A stretch of 39,997 nt of DNA. It comes from an uncultured Gammaproteobacteria bacterium (lineage in GTDB: Bacteria; Patescibacteriota; Patescibacteriia; UBA1558; S5-K13). The stretch is from assembly GCA_964636855.1 (NCBI GenBank), contig CAZWVD010000001.1, forward strand, positions 1-39,997, written 5' to 3'. The notes below the pieces were generated by a model. It was not told the origin of the DNA and ran no database searches. It saw nothing but the letters and a program-made list of their open reading frames with translations. Shown one piece after another: positions 20,389 to 32,115 of the stretch (positions are counted from its first letter, which is position 1; every line of letters begins with the position of its first letter). The translations under genes were made by a program, and so were the position numbers.

Positions 20389-22236
20389 ATGCCTAGAACA
20401 TTAAGATCAATGGCTCATCCGATTACAACATGTGAATGGGAACCGTTCGCTATCAATATGGAAGCACTGTCTTCGCTAACTAGAACCAGTTTAGACCTTG
20501 AAGATAATTTTATTGGAACAGCTGAAACACTTATTAATCAATATCGCGGATATAGCAAATCTGAATCAGAAATTAACCGTGTCAAAAATGAAAGTAAAAG
20601 AAGGTGTATAGATGCCAAGGGTATAATAGACTTTGCTTATTCAAAAATTAACGAGTCTACGTCAATTTGTTTTAAGATTTCAGATGCTATTTACCAAGGA
20701 AATAGATTGTATATAAATATAACATCCAATAATGCCGAACTTAAAAATATGGCAATTGATTTAGTCCAATCATATTACGCTGGTGTAGTTATAAAATGGG
20801 GAGATAGAATAATCAGCAATGCTGATTATGAGTTAAGTTCTGCGATTGGAAATCAGATAGTATCACGGGATAATAACTTCTTTAACTTGAGAATTAGAAT
20901 AATTCCAAGTCTAAATATGAAAGTAATTAAAAATTATCTAGAAAAACTATATAATAATTGTAATCGTGAATATTTAAATGTATGTGGGGAATGTAAGGCA
21001 AAGTTTATGTCTAATAATAATGTAAGGTCAATTGATAATGATTTACCAATTTGCAATCAATGTTTGTCTAGAATGGACAGGGTTCTTACTAGTGACATGA
21101 AATTAGCCGTTGTTTCAAATATCAGAAAAGCTTATAAGAAGATAGGGCTCAAAGATGTAGTATTTAATGGATGTATAATACCTGCTACGTCTGCTGCATC
21201 AGATGCGCTTCCATATACGTGTAAAAGATGTAACATAAAATGTGATTATTTACATACGGACGGATGTTGTTCGGATTGTAATAATAGTGAATGGAGAAGA
21301 ACAATGCATAATATAGATAATGTTACTGGACCAATAGAATTAGATAGTGTTTTAGATAATGATTTTCTGTATGGCTTCGAAGTAGAGATGGAATCAAATG
21401 GAAGAGTATCATTTAATAAAAAGAATTTGGATATTATAAATAACCTGTGTTCGATTGAGCATGACGGAAGTTTAAGTAACGGAATAGAAATTACTACTCC
21501 CCCTATTACAGGAAAAAATGGAGAGGATTTATTAAACGGTGTATATTCTGACTTGCGTGGATTAGGATTTATACCTAAAAAAACGTGTGGTGCACATGTT
21601 CATATATCATATCCTAAACTTACTGAGGAGTTATATCCAAGACTGTATTTTACACTTAAAAATATAGAAAATCTTATATTTGGATTAGTTCCTTCTCACA
21701 GAAAGAAAAATAGATATTCGTATAAATTAGACTTGAATGATAAAAGCAAAAACTTAGAAATATTAGACCAAAAGTCGTTTGACAAGATGTATTACAGTAG
21801 AGATGCGATTTCCGATCCGGAAATAGATAGAATAAAAGGATACAGAAGGCCATCTTGTAGGTATTACTGGGCTAATTTCCACTCATTATATTATAGGGGA
21901 ACGTTCGAAAATAGATTATTAGAAGCTGATTCAACTGCGGAAACTTCTATTTTATGGGCAAGGCTTAATAGTGATATTATTAAATGGGTATGTAGTGATA
22001 AATTTAGCAAAGACAAAATTATATCGGTATGTAAAGATGACAATCTTGATAGCCTGATTAAGCTACTAGAAATAATCGGAAATAACAATATGGATTTCTG
22101 GGTAAAGAGATTTAAAGAATATTGCGGTAAAACTTGCAATGAAAGCAATAGAGAACACCCCGTAAGTATGAATAACGGGCGTTTGACAGCCGCAGATAAT
22201 GGAGAATTGGTGTGGTACGTTAATCCGTGGATATAA
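20389..22236 (+). CDS. amidoligase (GS-like COOH-NH2 ligase, Amidoligase_2-type) with N-terminal extension and two zinc ribbons
   Basis: YGFEVEME, IEHDGSLSNGIEITTPPITG, CGAHVHISY, YYRGTFENRL. CGEC-x19-CNQC and CKRC-x12-CSDC. Confidence 0.7.
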   Translation: MPRTLRSMAHPITTCEWEPFAINMEALSSLTRTSLDLEDNFIGTAETLINQYRGYSKSESEINRVKNESKRRCIDAKGIIDFAYSKINESTSICFKISDAIYQGNRLYINITSNNAELKNMAIDLVQSYYAGVVIKWGDRIISNADYELSSAIGNQIVSRDNNFFNLRIRIIPSLNMKVIKNYLEKLYNNCNREYLNVCGECKAKFMSNNNVRSIDNDLPICNQCLSRMDRVLTSDMKLAVVSNIRKAYKKIGLKDVVFNGCIIPATSAASDALPYTCKRCNIKCDYLHTDGCCSDCNNSEWRRTMHNIDNVTGPIELDSVLDNDFLYGFEVEMESNGRVSFNKKNLDIINNLCSIEHDGSLSNGIEITTPPITGKNGEDLLNGVYSDLRGLGFIPKKTCGAHVHISYPKLTEELYPRLYFTLKNIENLIFGLVPSHRKKNRYSYKLDLNDKSKNLEILDQKSFDKMYYSRDAISDPEIDRIKGYRRPSCRYYWANFHSLYYRGTFENRLLEADSTAETSILWARLNSDIIKWVCSDKFSKDKIISVCKDDNLDSLIKLLEIIGNNNMDFWVKRFKEYCGKTCNESNREHPVSMNNGRLTAADNGELVWYVNPWI

Positions 22237-22272
22237 ATTAATATATAAATATTAAACAAGAAAGGAATAAAT

Positions 22273-23328
22273 ATGTGTGGAATATGTGGATTTATAACTG
22301 CCAATCCTAGCGTGGAAAACTCTAGGGTATTCAGATACTTGTTAGAAGGAAACTCTGCAAGGGGAACCGACAGTTTTGGAATAGCCAGTCTAGATAATGA
22401 TGGCGAGGTTAATATAATAAAACACCTAGGTTCTTCAAAAAACTGTACTGAAGCAGACTTTGATTATGCTAATACTGCAAAAATATGTATAGGGCATACT
22501 AGGTTAGCAACCCATGGTGCGGTTACAGAAGACAATGCCCATCCTATTAGGTTTAATAACATTATAGGGGTGCACAATGGAGTTATTCAAAACTATTTAG
22601 ATTTAATGCCGGACGCAGAAGTAGACAGTAGTTCTATATTTTATTTATTAGATAAAAATAACGGGGACGCAGAATGTCTGAAAAAGGTTTCTGGTAGTGT
22701 TGCAACTGCATGGATTGATATATGTAATAATTCTCTATCTTTAATAAGAAACTCTAACCCTATTAAGGCGTTTGTTAGTTTTAGAAGCGGAACTATTTTC
22801 TTCTCTAGTCTGGAATTTGATATTTTGGAATGGGAGTGGGCTAGCGGAGGACTTACAGATATGCTAGAAATTTCTATTCCAAGCGATGAACTAATTACAT
22901 TTAGCATGGATAAGGTATTAAGTATTTCTAGGCAAAAGATAAAGCTTGGTTCTAATGTAAAGTCCGAGATGTCTCTTTCTAAGATTTTCAATTCTTCTAA
23001 GAATTTTTCTAAGGTAGAAACTATAAAGCCAATTGGTAGCCTTAAAAAGATGGGTTGGTCTAGAAGAGCTATAAAGGCAGATAAGTGCGGTTATTGTGGA
23101 AATATAATGAAGGAAGAAAGATTCTATATCCCAACGGTTACTACATTACTATGTAAACAATGTATGCTTAAAAAATCTATAGAAGTACAAGTTTCAATTA
23201 ACGATATTTGCAAAGTAGGGGGGTCGAAGAAGGGTTTTATTTATCCCCTATCCGATACCGATTTTGCTTTGTTAAGTAATTATATGTATCAAAATTTTTT
23301 AGACGAAGCACAAATGAATTATTTGTAG
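22273..23328 (+). CDS. class-II (Ntn) glutamine amidotransferase domain protein with C-terminal zinc ribbon
   Basis: MCGICGF (Cys after Met1), HTRLATHG, HNGVIQN, EVDSSSIF. CGYC-x18-CKQC. Confidence 0.8.
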   Translation: MCGICGFITANPSVENSRVFRYLLEGNSARGTDSFGIASLDNDGEVNIIKHLGSSKNCTEADFDYANTAKICIGHTRLATHGAVTEDNAHPIRFNNIIGVHNGVIQNYLDLMPDAEVDSSSIFYLLDKNNGDAECLKKVSGSVATAWIDICNNSLSLIRNSNPIKAFVSFRSGTIFFSSLEFDILEWEWASGGLTDMLEISIPSDELITFSMDKVLSISRQKIKLGSNVKSEMSLSKIFNSSKNFSKVETIKPIGSLKKMGWSRRAIKADKCGYCGNIMKEERFYIPTVTTLLCKQCMLKKSIEVQVSINDICKVGGSKKGFIYPLSDTDFALLSNYMYQNFLDEAQMNYL

Positions 23329-23333
23329 GTATT

Positions 23334-23387
23334 CCCCTTGTACGGCGTACTTGCTTCCCCACATAGAGCAAGTGCGTCGTTTGGGGG
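23334..23387 (+). terminator. long GC-rich imperfect hairpin just after the GATase-1 stop (terminator or structured RNA)
   Basis: 14-bp stem 23342-23355/23367-23380 with two G-U pairs that form only on the + strand, flanked by CCCC/GGGGG. Confidence 0.45.
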
Positions 23388-23636
23388 TTACAGAGCTAGT
23401 TCCATATTATCCTATAGTATTTCTCTATAAGTTCAATATTATATACACAGACGTGTTTTCGACTTATAGTTATCTCACTATTGATAGCATTTTAATAGCA
23501 CCCATGCAACGCTAGAGGATATATTTTACATATCGGACCTATAGTTTTGAACGACAATAAGTTTTACTATAGCTATTTGACCTATTACAGTTCGAAGAGT
23601 AGATTATAAATATCTAAATTTTAATAAGTTTCTTAT

Positions 23637-25139
23637 ATGTGGTTAAATACATATATTAGCAAGCAAGAAAACCCAAAAATCATTGAAAGATTATTTGATG
23701 ATTACGAGTATAATAACAATGCTGAAGCGTATGTGTTAAAGGAGTGGAATAATATTTATAATCTGCGATATGATTCCGTAGATACGTCGCAGATTATGGA
23801 AGTTTCACATCCAAGAAACGGAGATCTAGAAATAATATTTAATTTTTCATACTCTACTAACCCCTTACATAAAATAGTATATAGAAATGTTCCCAGAGAA
23901 TTTTCTACATTAATAAAAGATAGATTTTTGAGAAGAGTAGCAGGCACACGCAAGTGTAAATGTGGAAGAGTAGTCGACCATATATTATCACGCGATTTTA
24001 AATCTGAAACCATTTGTTATCACTGCTATTGCGAAAAAATAAATATAGAACCAAGTCAATTAGTAAATTGTAATTATTGCAATAGAATTTGTGAGCAATC
24101 ACATTGTACTAACGGATTATGTGAGGAATGCTCTAGTAAATATGGCGTATGTTCAAACTGTGGTAGAACCGTTGTAAGAAGCACCCTTCAAGAACGCGGT
24201 GGAAAACTACTTTGCGAGTCGTGCCGATATGTTTCGCTCGGTACTATAATGTCGTCAAATCCTAATGATGACGACGATTTCCCGCCAGTAATTGGCAATG
24301 TAAAAGGATTGTTTACAGACAATAATTATACATATGGTTTTGAGATTGAAAGGGAGCAGACTAGAAAACTTACAACTGACGACGCCGATGCTATGAAAAC
24401 TATTAAGGACTTCACATATTTCACATATGATGGAAGCTTAAGAAATGGGATCGAAGTTGTTACGCTTCCATTTACAGGTCTTAAAGGTGAAAGACTATTC
24501 AAAAAAACATTTGACGTGTTAGATAGTTGCAAATTGAAAGGTGAGGAAACCTGTGGCTTACATTGCCATGTATCCCCAATTGATATAGATAAGCTTGAAA
24601 AATTAAAGACTGACAAGTATCTAAAAAGACTTTACAGACTCTGTTTTTTCATAGAAAGTTCACTAGCAGATATTACAGGGGATAGAATAAATAACAGGTA
24701 TTGTAAATCACTCAGAAAATTATTATCCCCTAAAAAAGCAAGGCAAGTTCCGTTTGATGTTCTATTCTATAATCAATTAGGCTCTTCTACAGATGTTAGA
24801 ACAATTAAATCGGAAATGGAAGCCCTGAAAGAAAATGCCAAATACGGCAAGGAGGAAGGACATCCATCGTGTAGATACCACTGGATCAATTTTCATTCAT
24901 TGTTCTACAGGGGAACGCTTGAAAATAGATTGTGTCCCGCCAACGTAACATATAAACAAGCCTTAGCATGGGCTAGGTTAACAAGCACCATTATAGATAT
25001 AGCACTACTTAGTGATTATAGATGGTATTCAAAAGCTAAACAGTTATCAGTATTTGAAGGCGTTGCCGATCCAGTAACTGTATTTTCAATAATGGGATTG
25101 CCTAAAAATACAACTAATCAACTACTTAGCATGAAATAA
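23637..25139 (+). CDS. amidoligase paralogue 2 with three N-terminal zinc ribbons
   Basis: YGFEIERE, FTYDGSLRNGIEVVTLPFTG, CGLHCHVSP, FYRGTLENRL. CKC-x17-CYHC, CNYC-x13-CEEC, CSNC-x17-CESC. Confidence 0.7.
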   Translation: MWLNTYISKQENPKIIERLFDDYEYNNNAEAYVLKEWNNIYNLRYDSVDTSQIMEVSHPRNGDLEIIFNFSYSTNPLHKIVYRNVPREFSTLIKDRFLRRVAGTRKCKCGRVVDHILSRDFKSETICYHCYCEKINIEPSQLVNCNYCNRICEQSHCTNGLCEECSSKYGVCSNCGRTVVRSTLQERGGKLLCESCRYVSLGTIMSSNPNDDDDFPPVIGNVKGLFTDNNYTYGFEIEREQTRKLTTDDADAMKTIKDFTYFTYDGSLRNGIEVVTLPFTGLKGERLFKKTFDVLDSCKLKGEETCGLHCHVSPIDIDKLEKLKTDKYLKRLYRLCFFIESSLADITGDRINNRYCKSLRKLLSPKKARQVPFDVLFYNQLGSSTDVRTIKSEMEALKENAKYGKEEGHPSCRYHWINFHSLFYRGTLENRLCPANVTYKQALAWARLTSTIIDIALLSDYRWYSKAKQLSVFEGVADPVTVFSIMGLPKNTTNQLLSMK

Positions 25140-25167
25140 ATAGTTTAAGTTATTATAAATAAACACT

Positions 25168-26268
25168 ATGTGCGGAATATCAGGCTTTATATCAAATAGC
25201 CCAAACAGAAAAAACAGGGAAATTTTATTAAACCTATTGTTTAATAATACTGACAGAGGTACGGACAGTTTCGGAGTTTATGGCAGACTTCAAAACGGCA
25301 ACGGATACTTACAGAAAAACAAGGGCAGTGCATTTGATATTAATTTTAATAGTATAAATAAGCTGGACCAAGCGACCCTATGTTTATCCCATACTAGGTT
25401 AGCAACTCATGGAGCTATCACCGCACAAAATGCCCACCCGCTAAAGTTTGGTGATATTATTGGCGTTCATAATGGAATGATAAAAAATGCAGTTGAACTG
25501 TATCCAGAATTAAAAGGCGACGTTGACTCAAAGGCTATATTTAAAACATTAAAAGACAATAACAACGAGTTTAATAGTCTTGAACGATTAGCGGGTTCGA
25601 TGGCTATCGCCTGGACCTTCAATAATAATAAACTTTACTTGGCTAAAAATTCTAACCCTTTAAGCGTAGTCGTTGTGCCAGAACTTAAAACGTTATTCTT
25701 TAGCAGTCAAGACACCCAACTTTATAGTGCTATTATATCTAAAGGCTACGACATTGAATTTGTGCCTATTAAAAAGAATATAGTATACACCATTTATTTT
25801 GACGGTTCAAACGCTTCAATTCCAAAAATTGAGGAGTTTAAACAAAACCTACCAGAGTATAAAAAGTTTGAATGGGATTATAAAAATGATGCATATAAAT
25901 TCTCTGACCATTACGCCAGCCCGCATTATTATAACAGCGAGTGGGAAAATTACGAAGAAACAAAAATACTTATACCTAAAAAGGTTGATATTGATATTTC
26001 AAACGTCAACGTTGAAGATACCGAGGATGAAGAATTTGAAGAATGTTCTTATAATTTCGTTGATGTAATGAGCAAAAAGAATCAATTATGCTTACACTGT
26101 AAGCATTGTGGAAGAAAATGCGAATTTGATAGGTTTTACAATCAAAAAGATGACGAGATTATATGCAGTGACTGTTACGACCTACTATTAGACTCGGGAT
26201 TTGATATGTTACAAATTGGAGTCGTAGACGATCAGAACAAAATGGTAACGTTTTGGAAGCAACTATAG
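25168..26268 (+). CDS. class-II glutamine amidotransferase paralogue 2 with C-terminal zinc ribbon
   Basis: MCGISGF, HTRLATHG, HNGMIKN, DVDSKAIF. CKHC-x18-CSDC. Confidence 0.8.
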   Translation: MCGISGFISNSPNRKNREILLNLLFNNTDRGTDSFGVYGRLQNGNGYLQKNKGSAFDINFNSINKLDQATLCLSHTRLATHGAITAQNAHPLKFGDIIGVHNGMIKNAVELYPELKGDVDSKAIFKTLKDNNNEFNSLERLAGSMAIAWTFNNNKLYLAKNSNPLSVVVVPELKTLFFSSQDTQLYSAIISKGYDIEFVPIKKNIVYTIYFDGSNASIPKIEEFKQNLPEYKKFEWDYKNDAYKFSDHYASPHYYNSEWENYEETKILIPKKVDIDISNVNVEDTEDEEFEECSYNFVDVMSKKNQLCLHCKHCGRKCEFDRFYNQKDDEIICSDCYDLLLDSGFDMLQIGVVDDQNKMVTFWKQL

Positions 26269-28653: not shown

Positions 28654-29100
28654 ATCATATACTACAGTAATATTAGAGTAGAATAGTATTAGACGACAAG
28701 GATTAAATCCCTGTTAGGAGATGGCTAGTTGAGACACTAGTTTACCAGTTATAGATATTACCATTTATACTTACTAACTCTTTATTAAGAATTATCCAGT
28801 AATGGGCTCAGGTCTTCCTGTCTAGCCCTAGTAGTTAAAGACGGTCAATAGCTATTGCTATCACATCACTTGTAAACCCCCGTAGCGGTTTATTTCTTTG
28901 GGGACCAGACCTATAACCTTCGTGTTATATAACATCCTCGTCTGAGAGCTGACTTAATTCGCACTCATGTCAGGAATTTGTATTTTCTATGTTTAGAATA
29001 TATCAATACGTATACCGCTTGTCAATACCGTGTAATGCAAGGTACTGATTTATGTTGTTGTATAGGCATAAATATCTTTACCATTTGCCGTCACTATTAT

Positions 29101-29178
29101 TGGACTTGCCGAGAATCGAACTCGGGTATCTACTGCCACTCGTTTAAAGTCTTACAGTAGGCTATTCCTTTCAAGCCC
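29101..29178 (-). pseudogene. tRNA-like element: canonical acceptor stem and T-arm, aberrant D/anticodon region
   Basis: Minus strand GGGCTTG...CCGAG-TTCGATT-CTCGG-CAAGTCC-A. I could not fold a 5-bp/7-nt anticodon arm. Confidence 0.4.
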
Positions 29179-29293: not shown

Positions 29294-29360
29294 TGTAGTT
29301 GACAATGGGATTTGAACCCATAAGTCTCACGGTTTAACCAGTTAACCTATATCAACTACA
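29294..29360 (-). pseudogene. tRNA-like element lacking an anticodon arm (three-way junction)
   Basis: 11-bp closing stem, D-like hairpin GGTT-AACTGGTTA-AACC and T-arm ATGGG-TTCAAAT-CCCAT. Only 8 nt lie between the D-like and T hairpins. Confidence 0.4.
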
Positions 29361-29610: not shown

Positions 29611-29681
29611 TTCTGAGGCCTAGACTCGAACTAAGATTTTATGGTCCAGAGCCACATGTACTACCTTTATACTACCTTAGA
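29611..29681 (-). tRNA. tRNA-Gln (anticodon CTG)
   Basis: Hand-folded cloverleaf: acceptor TCTAAGG/CCTCAGA (one A-C mismatch, U1-A72), D-loop with GG, anticodon loop CTCTGGA, T-loop TTCGAGT. 71 nt. Confidence 0.75.
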
Positions 29682-29692
29682 TCATTGTACTC

Positions 29693-29766
29693 TGGCAGAC
29701 TACTGAGGAATCGAACCCCAACTAACTCTTTTGGAGAGAGTCGTCATACCATTAGACCAGTAATCT
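29693..29766 (-). tRNA. tRNA-Trp (anticodon CCA), CCA end encoded
   Basis: Acceptor AGATTAC/GTAGTCT, anticodon arm ACTCT-CTCCAAA-AGAGT, T-arm TGGGG-TTCGATT-CCTCA, discriminator G then CCA. 74 nt. Confidence 0.85.
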
Positions 29767-29769
29767 ATA

Positions 29770-29844
29770 AGCACAAAGTAGGATTTGAACCTACGGATAG
29801 AAGGGTTGCGGCCTACCGTGTTTACCAAACTTCACCATTTGTGC
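29770..29844 (-). tRNA. tRNA-Cys (anticodon GCA) with unusual C33
   Basis: Perfect acceptor GCACAAA/TTTGTGC, discriminator T (U73, as in E. coli tRNA-Cys), T-arm GTAGG-TTCAAAT-CCTAC. The anticodon loop is CCGCAAC and the stem has one T-T mismatch. Confidence 0.7.
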
Positions 29845-30123
29845 AAGGAGAGATACTCAGATATCTATTACAATGAAGTCGCTACATATCTCTCCGTATT
29901 GTTCATAAAGAACATATATTTGTAAGTCTTCATCATATAGTGGACTGTTGCCTGTATTGAGTTACTTCATAAACAGGACTTATTTAGTTGTTCGTTATAC
30001 CCAGTCCAAGTATAATATAATACAGCGCAAAGATGTAACCTATCCTGTATACGCGAATTAGTGCTCTATATTTCTAGAGAGCATACAAATGTTATTATAA
30101 AAGTTATATTTTGTCAAGAGCGA

Positions 30124-30276
30124 TTAAACGTGTTTATAAATCTTGGTTAGATTAGGTACCTTCTCAGGAGTTATATTTGTATTCTTTTCGCATTTCCTAC
30201 ACATTATAGTGTATTTACCGTTATATATCTTTCCGATAATCAGATAATCTTCTTCACCGCATAGTTCACACTTCAT
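30124..30276 (-). CDS. mini zinc-ribbon protein (50 aa), hand-called
   Basis: MKCELCGEEDYLIIGKIYNGKYTIMCRKCEKN..., i.e. CxxC-x19-CxxC. Confidence 0.55.
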   Translation of the reverse strand: MKCELCGEEDYLIIGKIYNGKYTIMCRKCEKNTNITPEKVPNLTKIYKHV

Positions 30277-30418
30277 TTTCACTTACTCTTTTTAATTTAT
30301 TAAAGCACTTATCACATACGGTAAGTTCTAATTTTCCTACCCTTATAGAACTTTTATATGATACTACTGTTTTTCCACAGTATTGACACTTAAACTCTAC
30401 TCTACCGCTTATATCCAT
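30266..30418 (-). CDS. mini zinc-ribbon protein (50 aa), hand-called
   Basis: MDISGRVEFKCQYCGKTVVSYKSSIRVGKLELTVCDKCFNKL..., i.e. CxxC-x20-CxxC. Its stop overlaps the next start by 11 nt. Confidence 0.55.
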   Translation of the reverse strand: MDISGRVEFKCQYCGKTVVSYKSSIRVGKLELTVCDKCFNKLKRVSENEV

Positions 30419-30422
30419 AAAG

Positions 30423-30608
30423 TTATTCATGCTCATTCTCTAACAAATTTATTTTATCGCTTAGATCTGTACTTGTCATACCAATTTGTTCTACTATGTT
30501 TATTGCCGATTCTAACGATATAGAACCGTCAATTACTAACTCCGCTATAAACTTTAATTTGATAGCTAATACTTCTTGTTCGCATTCTGGATTCATATAT
30601 TTACACAT
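30423..30608 (-). CDS. hypothetical acidic protein (61 aa, or 57 aa from the ATG at 30596)
   Basis: ORF directly downstream of the ATP-grasp gene. Confidence 0.55.
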   Translation of the reverse strand: MCKYMNPECEQEVLAIKLKFIAELVIDGSISLESAINIVEQIGMTSTDLSDKINLLENEHE

Positions 30609-31431
30609 TCATATAAATTACATTAAACGAAATAGGATGCATTCCATCCCATATAATACTGGAATCTTCATACAGATCAGAATCTTCCCACATATCTTCT
30701 TCGATTGCAATATTAAACGCACTGGCATATTTATGCGCTGTATATCCAGAAACTTTAGGAGCAGTATTTACTTCACATATTACAAACCCAAACTGATTTG
30801 ACATAATATCTACAGCACCAAAATCCAGTCCTAAAGAGGATACCGCATCAACCGCACTCTTTGCCATGTTAAGATTTATACTATTCCAATTTATGAGTTT
30901 AAAATTGAACCCAGTAGACTTATTCCATACCATCTGATTTTTATCTCCGCCCAGTTTTTCCTGTGCAAGGAGAACCTTGTTTCCCATAACATGAAACCGA
31001 TACTCTCTTTGTTTACTAAATAGATATGTAAAATCTGTACAGCCATGTATTTTGGCATTTTCTACATCAAGCATATTTTTACAAACAAAAAAATGTTTTC
31101 CACCGTAGTGTTTGTCTGGTCTACCTATAATAGTTCTGTTAATCATGTTATTAAAGTCTACGGTTTTTAGCGTAGGAACTCCGTTTTGTTCAAATAACTT
31201 TCTAGCCTTTGGCTTATTAGATGCTATCGCAATAGAATCCGTAGGATTAAATTCGGAATCACTAGGCGTAACCTGGGTTGTACATCCCCAATTAATTACA
31301 TTTCTAGGTTGCTTAAATCTAGATGGGGTTAAAACTCCTCTTTTAGAGTATATTACTTTTGCCTCCAATCCTTCTGCGTGAAGCTCCCTGATCGTCTCTT
31401 CACTGCATTTTTTTGCAACAATTGCATCCAT
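30601..31431 (-). CDS. ATP-grasp ligase (RimK-like)
   Basis: NKPKARKLFEQNGVPT, IGRPDKHYGGKHF, EYRFHVMGNKV and LGLDFGAVDIM...FVICEVNTAPKVSG follow the ATP-grasp layout. Confidence 0.65.
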   Translation of the reverse strand: MDAIVAKKCSEETIRELHAEGLEAKVIYSKRGVLTPSRFKQPRNVINWGCTTQVTPSDSEFNPTDSIAIASNKPKARKLFEQNGVPTLKTVDFNNMINRTIIGRPDKHYGGKHFFVCKNMLDVENAKIHGCTDFTYLFSKQREYRFHVMGNKVLLAQEKLGGDKNQMVWNKSTGFNFKLINWNSINLNMAKSAVDAVSSLGLDFGAVDIMSNQFGFVICEVNTAPKVSGYTAHKYASAFNIAIEEDMWEDSDLYEDSSIIWDGMHPISFNVIYMNV

Positions 31432-31500
31432 AAAAATATCGGTGTTGTAAACTTAAATATTCTATGATACCATTTAAACATTAATATGTCAATAGTATAA

Positions 31501-32115
31501 ATGGGAAAAAAGAGATTCTTTAAGGTACAGGAAGAAGACCGTGGAGAAATTAATGGAACAGTTGACAATTTATTAGACAATCAGTCGGAACTTAAAAGTT
31601 CTGCAGACAGATTAATGATAATAAGTCCAGAAGAAAGACGTAAGATTTTAACTAACTCTCACTGGTCTACACGTGGAAGACTGGTAGAACAAATGGTAGA
31701 AAATGCAATGCTGTCTGGATTCTATGATATTGATAGTATATTCGATTGGCTGGGAGGTTCTAAAGGAGTAAGAAGAGACTCTGTAGAGGTTGCATATAAA
31801 AAAGTTATAGACAAATGGTTAGAAGAAAGTAAGCAACCGGATTCTATGACCAATGTTGAGAGAACTAGGCTTGTTAAAACTGCTTGGAAACTTGTTAGAG
31901 AATGTCAGTCTAAAGCTAACGAGGCAAAAGAATTAAAGGACTGGGTAGCAGTTAAAAGATTGGAACTAGATACACAAGCAAGAATTGCCAAGCTTACATT
32001 CGTTGAAAAGATGATAGACCAAGGAAACGCACCTCTGTCAATTAATCTATTTGGTAGTAATACTCCAGATAATGTAGAACCGATAACTTTTGAAGCAGAG
32101 ATAACAAAGCAATAA
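31501..32115 (+). CDS. terS: putative terminase small subunit
   Basis: Called from position only: immediately upstream of TerL with a stop/start overlap (TAATG). 204 aa. Confidence 0.45.
   Translation: MGKKRFFKVQEEDRGEINGTVDNLLDNQSELKSSADRLMIISPEERRKILTNSHWSTRGRLVEQMVENAMLSGFYDIDSIFDWLGGSKGVRRDSVEVAYKKVIDKWLEESKQPDSMTNVERTRLVKTAWKLVRECQSKANEAKELKDWVAVKRLELDTQARIAKLTFVEKMIDQGNAPLSINLFGSNTPDNVEPITFEAEITKQ

Follow-up and report, generated by a model that had tools for sequence, protein, structure and literature searches.

An amidoligase, a class-II glutamine amidotransferase (GATase) and an ATP-grasp ligase form a cassette that is among the commonest enzyme sets of lytic phages and was flagged in 2009. 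It has been reported from phiEco32, LUZ24-like phages, PA11, RIO-1 and OM43 phages (PMC3890496, PMC6209634, PMC6256558, PMC10580990), and its proposed target is the host peptidoglycan or another envelope precursor (PMC6256558 and PMC10580990, citing Iyer et al. 2009; PMC6256558 alone also cites Hardies et al. 2013 for the peptidoglycan-modification idea). Here we describe a locus in which an ATP-grasp gene is followed by three mini-genes, one for an acidic 61-aa protein and two for zinc ribbons, at positions 30124-31431 on the minus strand of a 39,997-nt stretch of contig CAZWVD010000001.1 (assembly GCA_964636855.1), called the window below. The window is part of a 43.2-kb contig (C1) in a 1.04-Mb bin that is 79% complete with 35% GC, and scans against PHROGs and Pfam found phage genes in it: tail, lysis, methylase, exonucleases, an Erf-like protein, helicase, primase, terminase and portal. 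The ligase is probably the ATP-grasp of the known cassette, split off together with a ribbon companion, and acts with a doubled amidoligase-amidotransferase module of the same phage on one amide-linked product. No new enzyme comes with this phage; it would show a catalogued cassette dissected, with the ATP-grasp pulled out together with its ribbon companion. New here are the split, the doubled pairs, the lack of two common members and the ribbon mini-genes, and the one new lead is a ribbon recurring beside the sole cassette enzyme that carries no fused ribbon.

The ATP-grasp gene (30601-31431, minus strand, 276 aa) matches phrog_2599 with an E-value of 1.5e-30. Its AlphaFold2 (AF2) model has the three-domain ATP-grasp fold (pLDDT 89.4, pTM 0.88), and the best PDB neighbours found with Foldseek are RimK, including the RimK-S6 complex (TM score 0.68-0.71), and LysX/ArgX with LysW (0.65-0.67). 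The match to RimK 5zct covers the full length (E = 2.8e-13, TM 0.71); the graspetide ligase PsnB is also among the top neighbours (TM about 0.6), and D-Ala-D-Ala ligases score lower. A profile of the family gave values of 5.8e-14 to 2e-12 against RimK chains, about 5e-11 against cyanophycin synthetase, 4e-9 against AMdnB, 1e-7 against Ddl and about 1e-6 against ArgX/LysX. An alignment of 52 homologues shows no variation at K73, R104, E143, R145, H147, K159, D208, E220 and N222, and the Mg-ATP residues D208, E220 and N222 align with the VDIL...EVN stretch of RimK. Judged by alignment and model, the protein is an intact ATP-grasp carboxylate-amine ligase, with a predicted complete RimK-like fold and its Mg-ATP residues in place.

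The ligase belongs to a phage-specific family of the RimK-like clade. A tblastn search found homologues, none of them reaching 60% identity, in 120 phage records that cover many hosts, and at least 551 stretches of IMG/VR also contain one. One conserved-motif scan of 185,579 species genomes returned 24 loci with the family, all of them on contigs of metagenome-assembled genomes (MAGs), about half of which are 41-55 kb long. No closer relative of the phage, above about 40% identity, turned up in IMG/VR, the GTDB genomes, the JGI metagenomes or a set of 5.8 billion proteins. The initial annotation had named a housekeeping family, for example a purine or a D-Ala-D-Ala ligase, combined with a lack of co-occurrence with the amidoligase module in relatives, as the outcome that would speak against its reading. 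Structure and profile comparisons give a RimK-like enzyme; a housekeeping ligase was rejected, as D-Ala-D-Ala ligase and purine enzymes match far more weakly than RimK and the family sits on MAG contigs of which about half are phage-sized.

The partner enzymes are encoded in the same window. A plus-strand module at 20389-26268, directly after the helicase and primase genes, consists of an amidoligase of 615 aa, a class-II GATase of 351 aa, an amidoligase of 500 aa and a class-II GATase of 366 aa (Pfam Amidoligase_2 and GATase_6/7; PHROGs). Every enzyme of the module carries CxxC..CxxC ribbons. The two amidoligases are 35% identical to each other and the two amidotransferases 44% in their catalytic domain. 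The two amidoligases that had been proposed at 20-26 kb are thereby confirmed, each accompanied by an amidotransferase; with an ATP-grasp that is predicted to be intact, the phage therefore has three ATP-dependent carboxylate-amine ligases, as had been claimed. A second ATP-grasp of the same family was not found in the rest of the contig or of the bin.

Co-occurrence was evaluated on loci picked by ATP-grasp similarity alone, 10 from a protein collection and 80 from IMG/VR. Partners were searched for by comparing six-frame open reading frames (ORFs) with iterated profiles seeded from the window amidoligases and amidotransferases. ATP-grasps more than 60% identical were collapsed, which gave 63 non-redundant groups, and partners were counted within 7 kb. 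A class-II GATase was found in 59/63 groups, Amidoligase_2 in 50/63, a COOH-NH2 ligase of the PF14395 type in 43/63 and a GGACT enzyme in 17/63. A second and independent set, drawn from GTDB genomes and JGI metagenomes, added 52 groups; 20 of their loci have flanks of 10 kb or more, and 17 of these hold a partner enzyme. The initial annotation had offered cooperation with the 20-26 kb module as one of two possible roles; the linkage to GATase and Amidoligase_2 backs it strongly, and we therefore read the ATP-grasp as the third ligase of a phiEco32/LUZ24/RIO-1-type cassette.

The same data bear on the idea that the ATP-grasp alone modifies ribosomal protein S6 or another host protein, as part of a takeover of translation beside the phage tRNAs. 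RimK is the best match in both sequence and fold, phrog_2599 carries the label 'ribosomal protein S6 glutaminyl transferase', the operon adjoins three tRNA genes, and 3/63 loci have neither amidoligase nor GATase within 7 kb. S6 glutamylation is a candidate activity by likeness to RimK, to which the identity is only about 17%; the Pfam RimK cut-off is missed, and the PHROG label was transferred by name. In the related loci for which gene lists were read, the ATP-grasp does not adjoin tRNA genes. The linkage to amidoligase and amidotransferase genes is tight and widespread, which argues for a shared pathway, and a stand-alone S6 modifier is very improbable.

The closest cassette found to that of the window is in locus L007, where the order is an amidoligase with four ribbons, a GATase with a C-terminal ribbon, a 60-aa ORF, the ATP-grasp and a 51-aa ribbon ORF. 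Both window amidoligases have the L007 amidoligase as their best outside match, both window GATases have the GATases of L007, L008 and L009, and the L007 ATP-grasp, at 40% identity, is among the best outside matches of the window ATP-grasp. The likeness extends to the first of the two zinc ribbons, the 56-aa protein znr56 (30266-30436, minus strand, motif CQYC-x20-CDKC). In L007 and L008 its match is the 51-aa ribbon ORF that comes next after the ATP-grasp (phmmer E = 0.0024 in a search of 8561 ORFs), such that FKCQYCGK...LELTVCDKCF in znr56 aligns with FRCSNCGK...LEIEFCKKCF in the ribbon of L007/L008. Ribbon-like mini-ORFs flank the ATP-grasp in the sub-clade closest to the window with no primase nearby: in L007/L008, in L009 (C-x6-C...CxxH), in L119 (CxxC...CxxH), and in L116/L118 and L011, where a double ribbon is combined with an acidic stretch. 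In two relatives from Bacillota MAGs (L001 3021-3902 and L002 6696-7604) the gene after the ATP-grasp encodes a protein of 293-302 aa with an acidic tail of the DDDF type, which by its sequence may be SSB-like.

The second ribbon, znr52 (30124-30282, minus strand, 52 aa, CELC-x19-CRKC), resembles znr56 weakly (BLASTP E = 0.011), and no further relatives of it were found; neither ribbon matched anything in a further 104 loci. Both proteins are basic, with a pI of about 9, and both end in valine. Neither matched LysW in a comparison with PDB sequences. The best Pfam match of znr56, to DUF7685, scores 23.6 bits where the cut-off is 27 bits; membership was rejected, as the model also gives sub-threshold matches in 10 of 14 control genomes.

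Ribbons of the CxxC..CxxC type were counted in the enzymes of the related loci. They are present in 36/63 GATases and 13/53 amidoligases, in none of 68 ATP-grasps, and in 20 of 348 other proteins of at least 200 aa; a fused ribbon is thus a trait of the family, and the ATP-grasp is without one. Small ribbon ORFs starting no more than 1 kb downstream of the ATP-grasp occur in 17/62 loci, compared with 15/625 same-strand windows of 1 kb (odds ratio 15, p = 4e-11), and in the second set in 9/43 loci compared with 5/272 control windows (p = 9e-6). A shared docking module is suggested by the fact that amidotransferases and amidoligases carry a fused ribbon and no ATP-grasp does. The copy numbers in the window also match, with two amidoligases, two amidotransferases and two free ribbons next to a single ATP-grasp, and each free ribbon may pair with one ligase-amidotransferase pair.

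Several observations weigh against a split cassette with a ribbon companion. The distance from the ATP-grasp to its nearest partner is 4333 nt, with the partner on the opposite strand, and this is the extreme case of the loci examined; the gap to the nearest amidoligase or GATase in relatives has a median of 167 nt and a maximum of 4731 nt. Searches of the window, the whole contig and the remainder of the bin gave neither the COOH-NH2 ligase (PF14395) nor a GGACT/AIG2 enzyme. The Pfam RimK match (PF08443) is 17.8 bits, below the 21-bit cut-off. A literature search gave no experimental identification of the cassette product in any phage, so that both chemistry and target are inferred. Most of the ribbon enrichment stems from one family, MRCxxC[DN]...C..C with an acidic tail (31 ORFs), which in many phages sits between the cassette and the primase/helicase. 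The OM43 phage MEP402 keeps an ORF of this family directly before its primase, and the 9.7 kb inspected there have no annotated ATP-grasp, so the family may belong to the replication module. The enrichment may accordingly reflect conserved gene order or a role in replication. Finally, comparison of the GATase ribbons with the free ribbons gave profile probabilities of 52-87%, whereas for unrelated control ribbons the 90th percentile is 71% and the maximum 92%, the motifs being very short.

The MRCxxC[DN] proteins are 50-90 aa long, have the ribbon at the N-terminus and a strongly acidic C-terminal tail, and in several cases end in an aromatic residue. The 31 ORFs are in loci L022-L170, examples being L059 (7924-8175) and L197 (4567-4743, MEP402 gp10), and the copies in phage records are all annotated as hypothetical. 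We considered znr56 and znr52 as members and rejected this, as neither gave a match at E <10. The tail of the family recalls the acidic tails of SSB and T7 gp2.5.

A position near replication genes would also fit a cassette that modifies DNA or a nucleotide instead of the cell wall, with the zinc ribbons binding nucleic acid. In most phages the cassette lies inside the replication module, after helicase and primase in the window and elsewhere directly before primase/helicase; moreover, zinc ribbons often bind nucleic acid, and the two mini-ribbons are basic. The enzymes themselves point elsewhere: the nearest relatives all use amino-acid or peptide carboxylates, the frequent GGACT partner indicates gamma-glutamyl chemistry, and no nucleotide- or base-recognising domain turned up in the scans made. 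The literature search gave no link from the cassette to DNA modification, and we regard this alternative as quite improbable.

For the split cassette we envisage the following course. An ancestral cassette of contiguous genes would have been split, so that the ATP-grasp and a zinc-ribbon companion came to form an operon of their own under a sigma-70-type promoter; the ribbon gene may have been duplicated, and an acidic mini-gene specific to the lineage would have joined them. From the chemistry of its family, the ATP-grasp would activate the terminal carboxylate of a peptide-like acceptor as an acyl-phosphate and couple it to an amino acid, probably a glutamate-type one, as does RimK, its nearest relative. 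Carboxylates of the same product would be turned into amides by the amidoligase-amidotransferase pairs with ammonia from glutamine. What amidotransferases and amidoligases carry as a fused ribbon, the mini-ribbons would most likely provide in trans, and all five enzymes could thereby dock on one partner. The specific proposal that the free ribbons are docking subunits which give the ATP-grasp a fused-type ribbon in trans, with the weaker variant that the 61-aa protein is a LysW- or S6-like acceptor, is tentative and rather unlikely. Either version, docking or acceptor, would if true offer a first experimental route to the target of this cassette, which hundreds of phages carry. If the ribbon link reflects conserved gene order only, the locus is one more divergent copy of a known cassette.

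Whether the mini-genes are real was judged by codon usage, with a score for which 22 long window genes served as the training set. The 61-aa ORF scored 0.41, the 56-aa ORF 0.35 and the 52-aa ORF 0.15, where spurious ORFs of similar size have a mean of -0.17 (maximum 0.21) and chunks of real genes a mean of 0.39. The annotated frame scores best of six for each mini-gene. The 61-aa ORF and znr56 look like real genes because their codon-usage scores are near those of real-gene chunks; znr52, with a score exceeding 97% of the spurious ORFs, is probably a real gene as well.

The 61-aa protein (30423-30608, minus strand, alternative start at 30596) has a pI of 4.3, a net charge of -8 and the C-terminus LLENEHE, and it is without a zinc ribbon. 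AF2 run on the single sequence gave a three-helix model with a pLDDT of 86.7, for which a fold search returned nothing at E <1. No relatives were found in the 5.8 billion proteins, and none was accepted among 1.84 billion representatives. A match to a 5489-aa protein (E = 3e-14) was discarded, being the sum of nine weak matches to a tandem repeat, and kinship with the helical ORFs beside related ATP-grasps (60-62 aa in L007/L009, 49 aa in the L049 type) was likewise discarded at an hhalign probability below 1%. Across the ATP-grasp family no family of small neighbours spans more than 7/63 loci, and the C-termini of the neighbours are not conserved. The 61-aa protein is probably an accessory confined to this lineage, or else an unrelated early protein.

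The endings of two mini-proteins invite comparison with modification tails. The 61-aa protein ends in ...ENEHE and the 56-aa protein in ...SENEV, and in both the codons GAR-AAT-GAR contain the ATG of the next gene. The endings are not evidence of a tail motif because these codons hold that start codon, and a C-terminal 'LENE' as a conserved modification tail was rejected: the endings are gene-junction sequence, as in Citrobacter phage CVT22. In the window the overlapping GAR-AAT-GAR junction is used twice in succession, at 30423-30440 and 30266-30285. In CVT22 (L005, NC_027988.2 24811-43503), 20 small ORFs of about 60-120 aa with LENE-like C-termini are spread across the early region; 18 end in LENE or LENK and 2 in INE, with a near-invariant junction TTGGAGAATGAATAA(ATG), and the enzymes among them end otherwise. 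The CVT22 junction looks like a gene-boundary or translational-coupling cassette, or a recombination joint that shuffles small genes.

With these results, the other role offered by the initial annotation, that the ligase acts on one of the small co-transcribed proteins, can be weighed. In its fullest form the ATP-grasp would modify a protein of its own operon, the 61-aa protein through its C-terminal glutamate, in the manner of RimK with S6 or LysX with LysW, and the ribbons would be helpers. The nearest solved structures do use protein or peptide carboxylates (RimK-S6, LysX/ArgX-LysW, PsnB and its precursor); the 61-aa protein is strongly acidic and glutamate-terminated, the four genes are translationally coupled, and the 60-aa ORF just upstream of the ATP-grasp in L007 likewise ends in Glu. 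A co-encoded protein substrate is nevertheless unsupported because the 61-aa protein and znr52 have no relatives in the searches above. The hhalign comparison and the survey of small neighbours point the same way, the conserved partners of the ATP-grasp family being enzymes with no small protein among them, and the ribbons are basic, unlike LysW, and gave no match to it among PDB sequences. This part of the initial annotation therefore did not hold up, and we consider an own-operon substrate improbable.

Another view of the mini-genes is that they are unrelated early genes, for example for host takeover or anti-defence, which merely share a promoter with the ligase; this overlaps with the split-cassette reading. 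Two of the three have no relatives, phage early regions are rich in small lineage-specific genes, small zinc ribbons are common in phages, and a promoter-like site (ATGACA-17-TAAAAT, 10/12 consensus matches, minus strand, 30451-30479) lies inside the 61-aa gene, from where, by its sequence, it could drive both ribbon genes separately. Yet the closest cassette has a homologue of znr56 in the same place behind its ATP-grasp, members of the closest sub-clade repeatedly carry ribbon-like mini-ORFs next to theirs, and all four genes overlap. We take wholly unrelated mini-genes to be unlikely, and continue to favour a split cassette with a ribbon companion.

The layout of the locus agrees with the initial annotation in the features it had described: an ATP-grasp gene and three tiny overlapping genes on the minus strand are found where it had placed them. 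The four genes overlap serially by 8, 14 and then 11 (or 17) nt, and ATGTGTAA is the junction where the start of the 61-aa ORF overlaps the stop of the ATP-grasp gene. The reported 11-nt overlap between the two zinc-ribbon ORFs is exact when znr52 starts at the alternative ATG at 30276; from its GTG start the overlap is 17 nt. The leaders of the mini-genes, A/T-rich and without a Shine-Dalgarno motif, resemble those of other window genes. More generally, the 25-nt leaders of 26 gene starts in the window are A/T-rich with no Shine-Dalgarno motif seen, which suggests a host that starts translation without Shine-Dalgarno pairing.

A predicted sigma-70-type promoter (TTGACA-17-TATCAT with a TG extension, 11/12 consensus matches, minus strand, 31464-31492) lies some 30 nt ahead of the ATP-grasp start and, as a consensus match only, is the joint best of the 4.2-kb region scanned. 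The plus-strand packaging genes, which begin at 31501, diverge from it. Another promoter-like site (TTGACA-17-TAACAT, 10/12 matches, minus strand, 30089-30117) is found directly after znr52 and 245 nt before the first of three tRNA genes, all on the minus strand: tRNA-Cys(GCA) at 29770-29844, tRNA-Trp(CCA) at 29693-29766 and tRNA-Gln(CTG) at 29611-29681. They were called by ARAGORN and by the Rfam tRNA model, the latter with 54-55 bits each. The measured distance from znr52 to tRNA-Cys is 279 nt, in agreement with the earlier estimate of about 280 nt on the same strand, and a scan of this gap (29845-30123) showed no terminator and no unusually stable RNA structure (z = -1.18). Two further tRNA-like elements lie downstream of the three tRNAs on the same strand. 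One is a 60-nt element at 29297-29356 that scores 42.8 bits with the Rfam tRNA model, above gathering, and for which ARAGORN makes no call; for the other, at 29098-29178, only the ends of the tmRNA model match (28.4 bits, below gathering).

Four known systems serve for comparison. The graspetide (microviridin/plesiocin) ligases MdnB/C and PsnB share an ATP-grasp beside small ORFs, with a TM score of about 0.6 and an AMdnB profile match of 4e-9. The window ATP-grasp is, however, closer to RimK, and its conserved partners are enzymes and not precursor peptides; no leader or core repeats were seen on reading the mini-protein sequences, of which no formal motif search was made. The LysX/ArgX-LysW systems share a similar ATP-grasp fold (TM 0.65-0.67), with small zinc ribbons and an acidic protein ending in Glu alongside. 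In the window, by contrast, ribbon and acidic tail are on separate proteins, the ribbons are basic with no sequence match to LysW, and conservation of the small proteins does not extend across the ATP-grasp family. No enzymes of the LysZ/Y/J/K type were found among the part of the window ORFs that was scanned against PHROGs and Pfam, and these ORFs had replication, recombination, methylase, lysis, packaging and amidoligase/GATase functions only, or no match. RimK, the poly-alpha-L-glutamate ligase of S6, shares the three domains and the Mg-ATP residues D/E/N and is the best fold and profile match, but the window enzyme is about 17% identical to it, falls below the Pfam cut-off, is phage-specific and is linked to amidoligase and amidotransferase genes.

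The cassette of phiEco32, LUZ24-PaP3, PA11 and RIO-1 (Iyer et al. 2009, cited in PMC6256558, PMC10580990 and PMC3890496) differs from that of the window in four respects. The window ATP-grasp is separated from its partners by 4.3 kb, is encoded on the other strand and has a predicted promoter of its own, the amidoligase-amidotransferase pair is doubled, the PF14395 COOH-NH2 ligase and GGACT/AIG2 are lacking, and the ATP-grasp is followed by three overlapping mini-genes. Shared by both are the ATP-grasp family phrog_2599, the presence in the same genome of Amidoligase_2 and a class-II GATase with a C-terminal zinc ribbon, a site near the replication genes, and a total of three ATP-dependent ligases.

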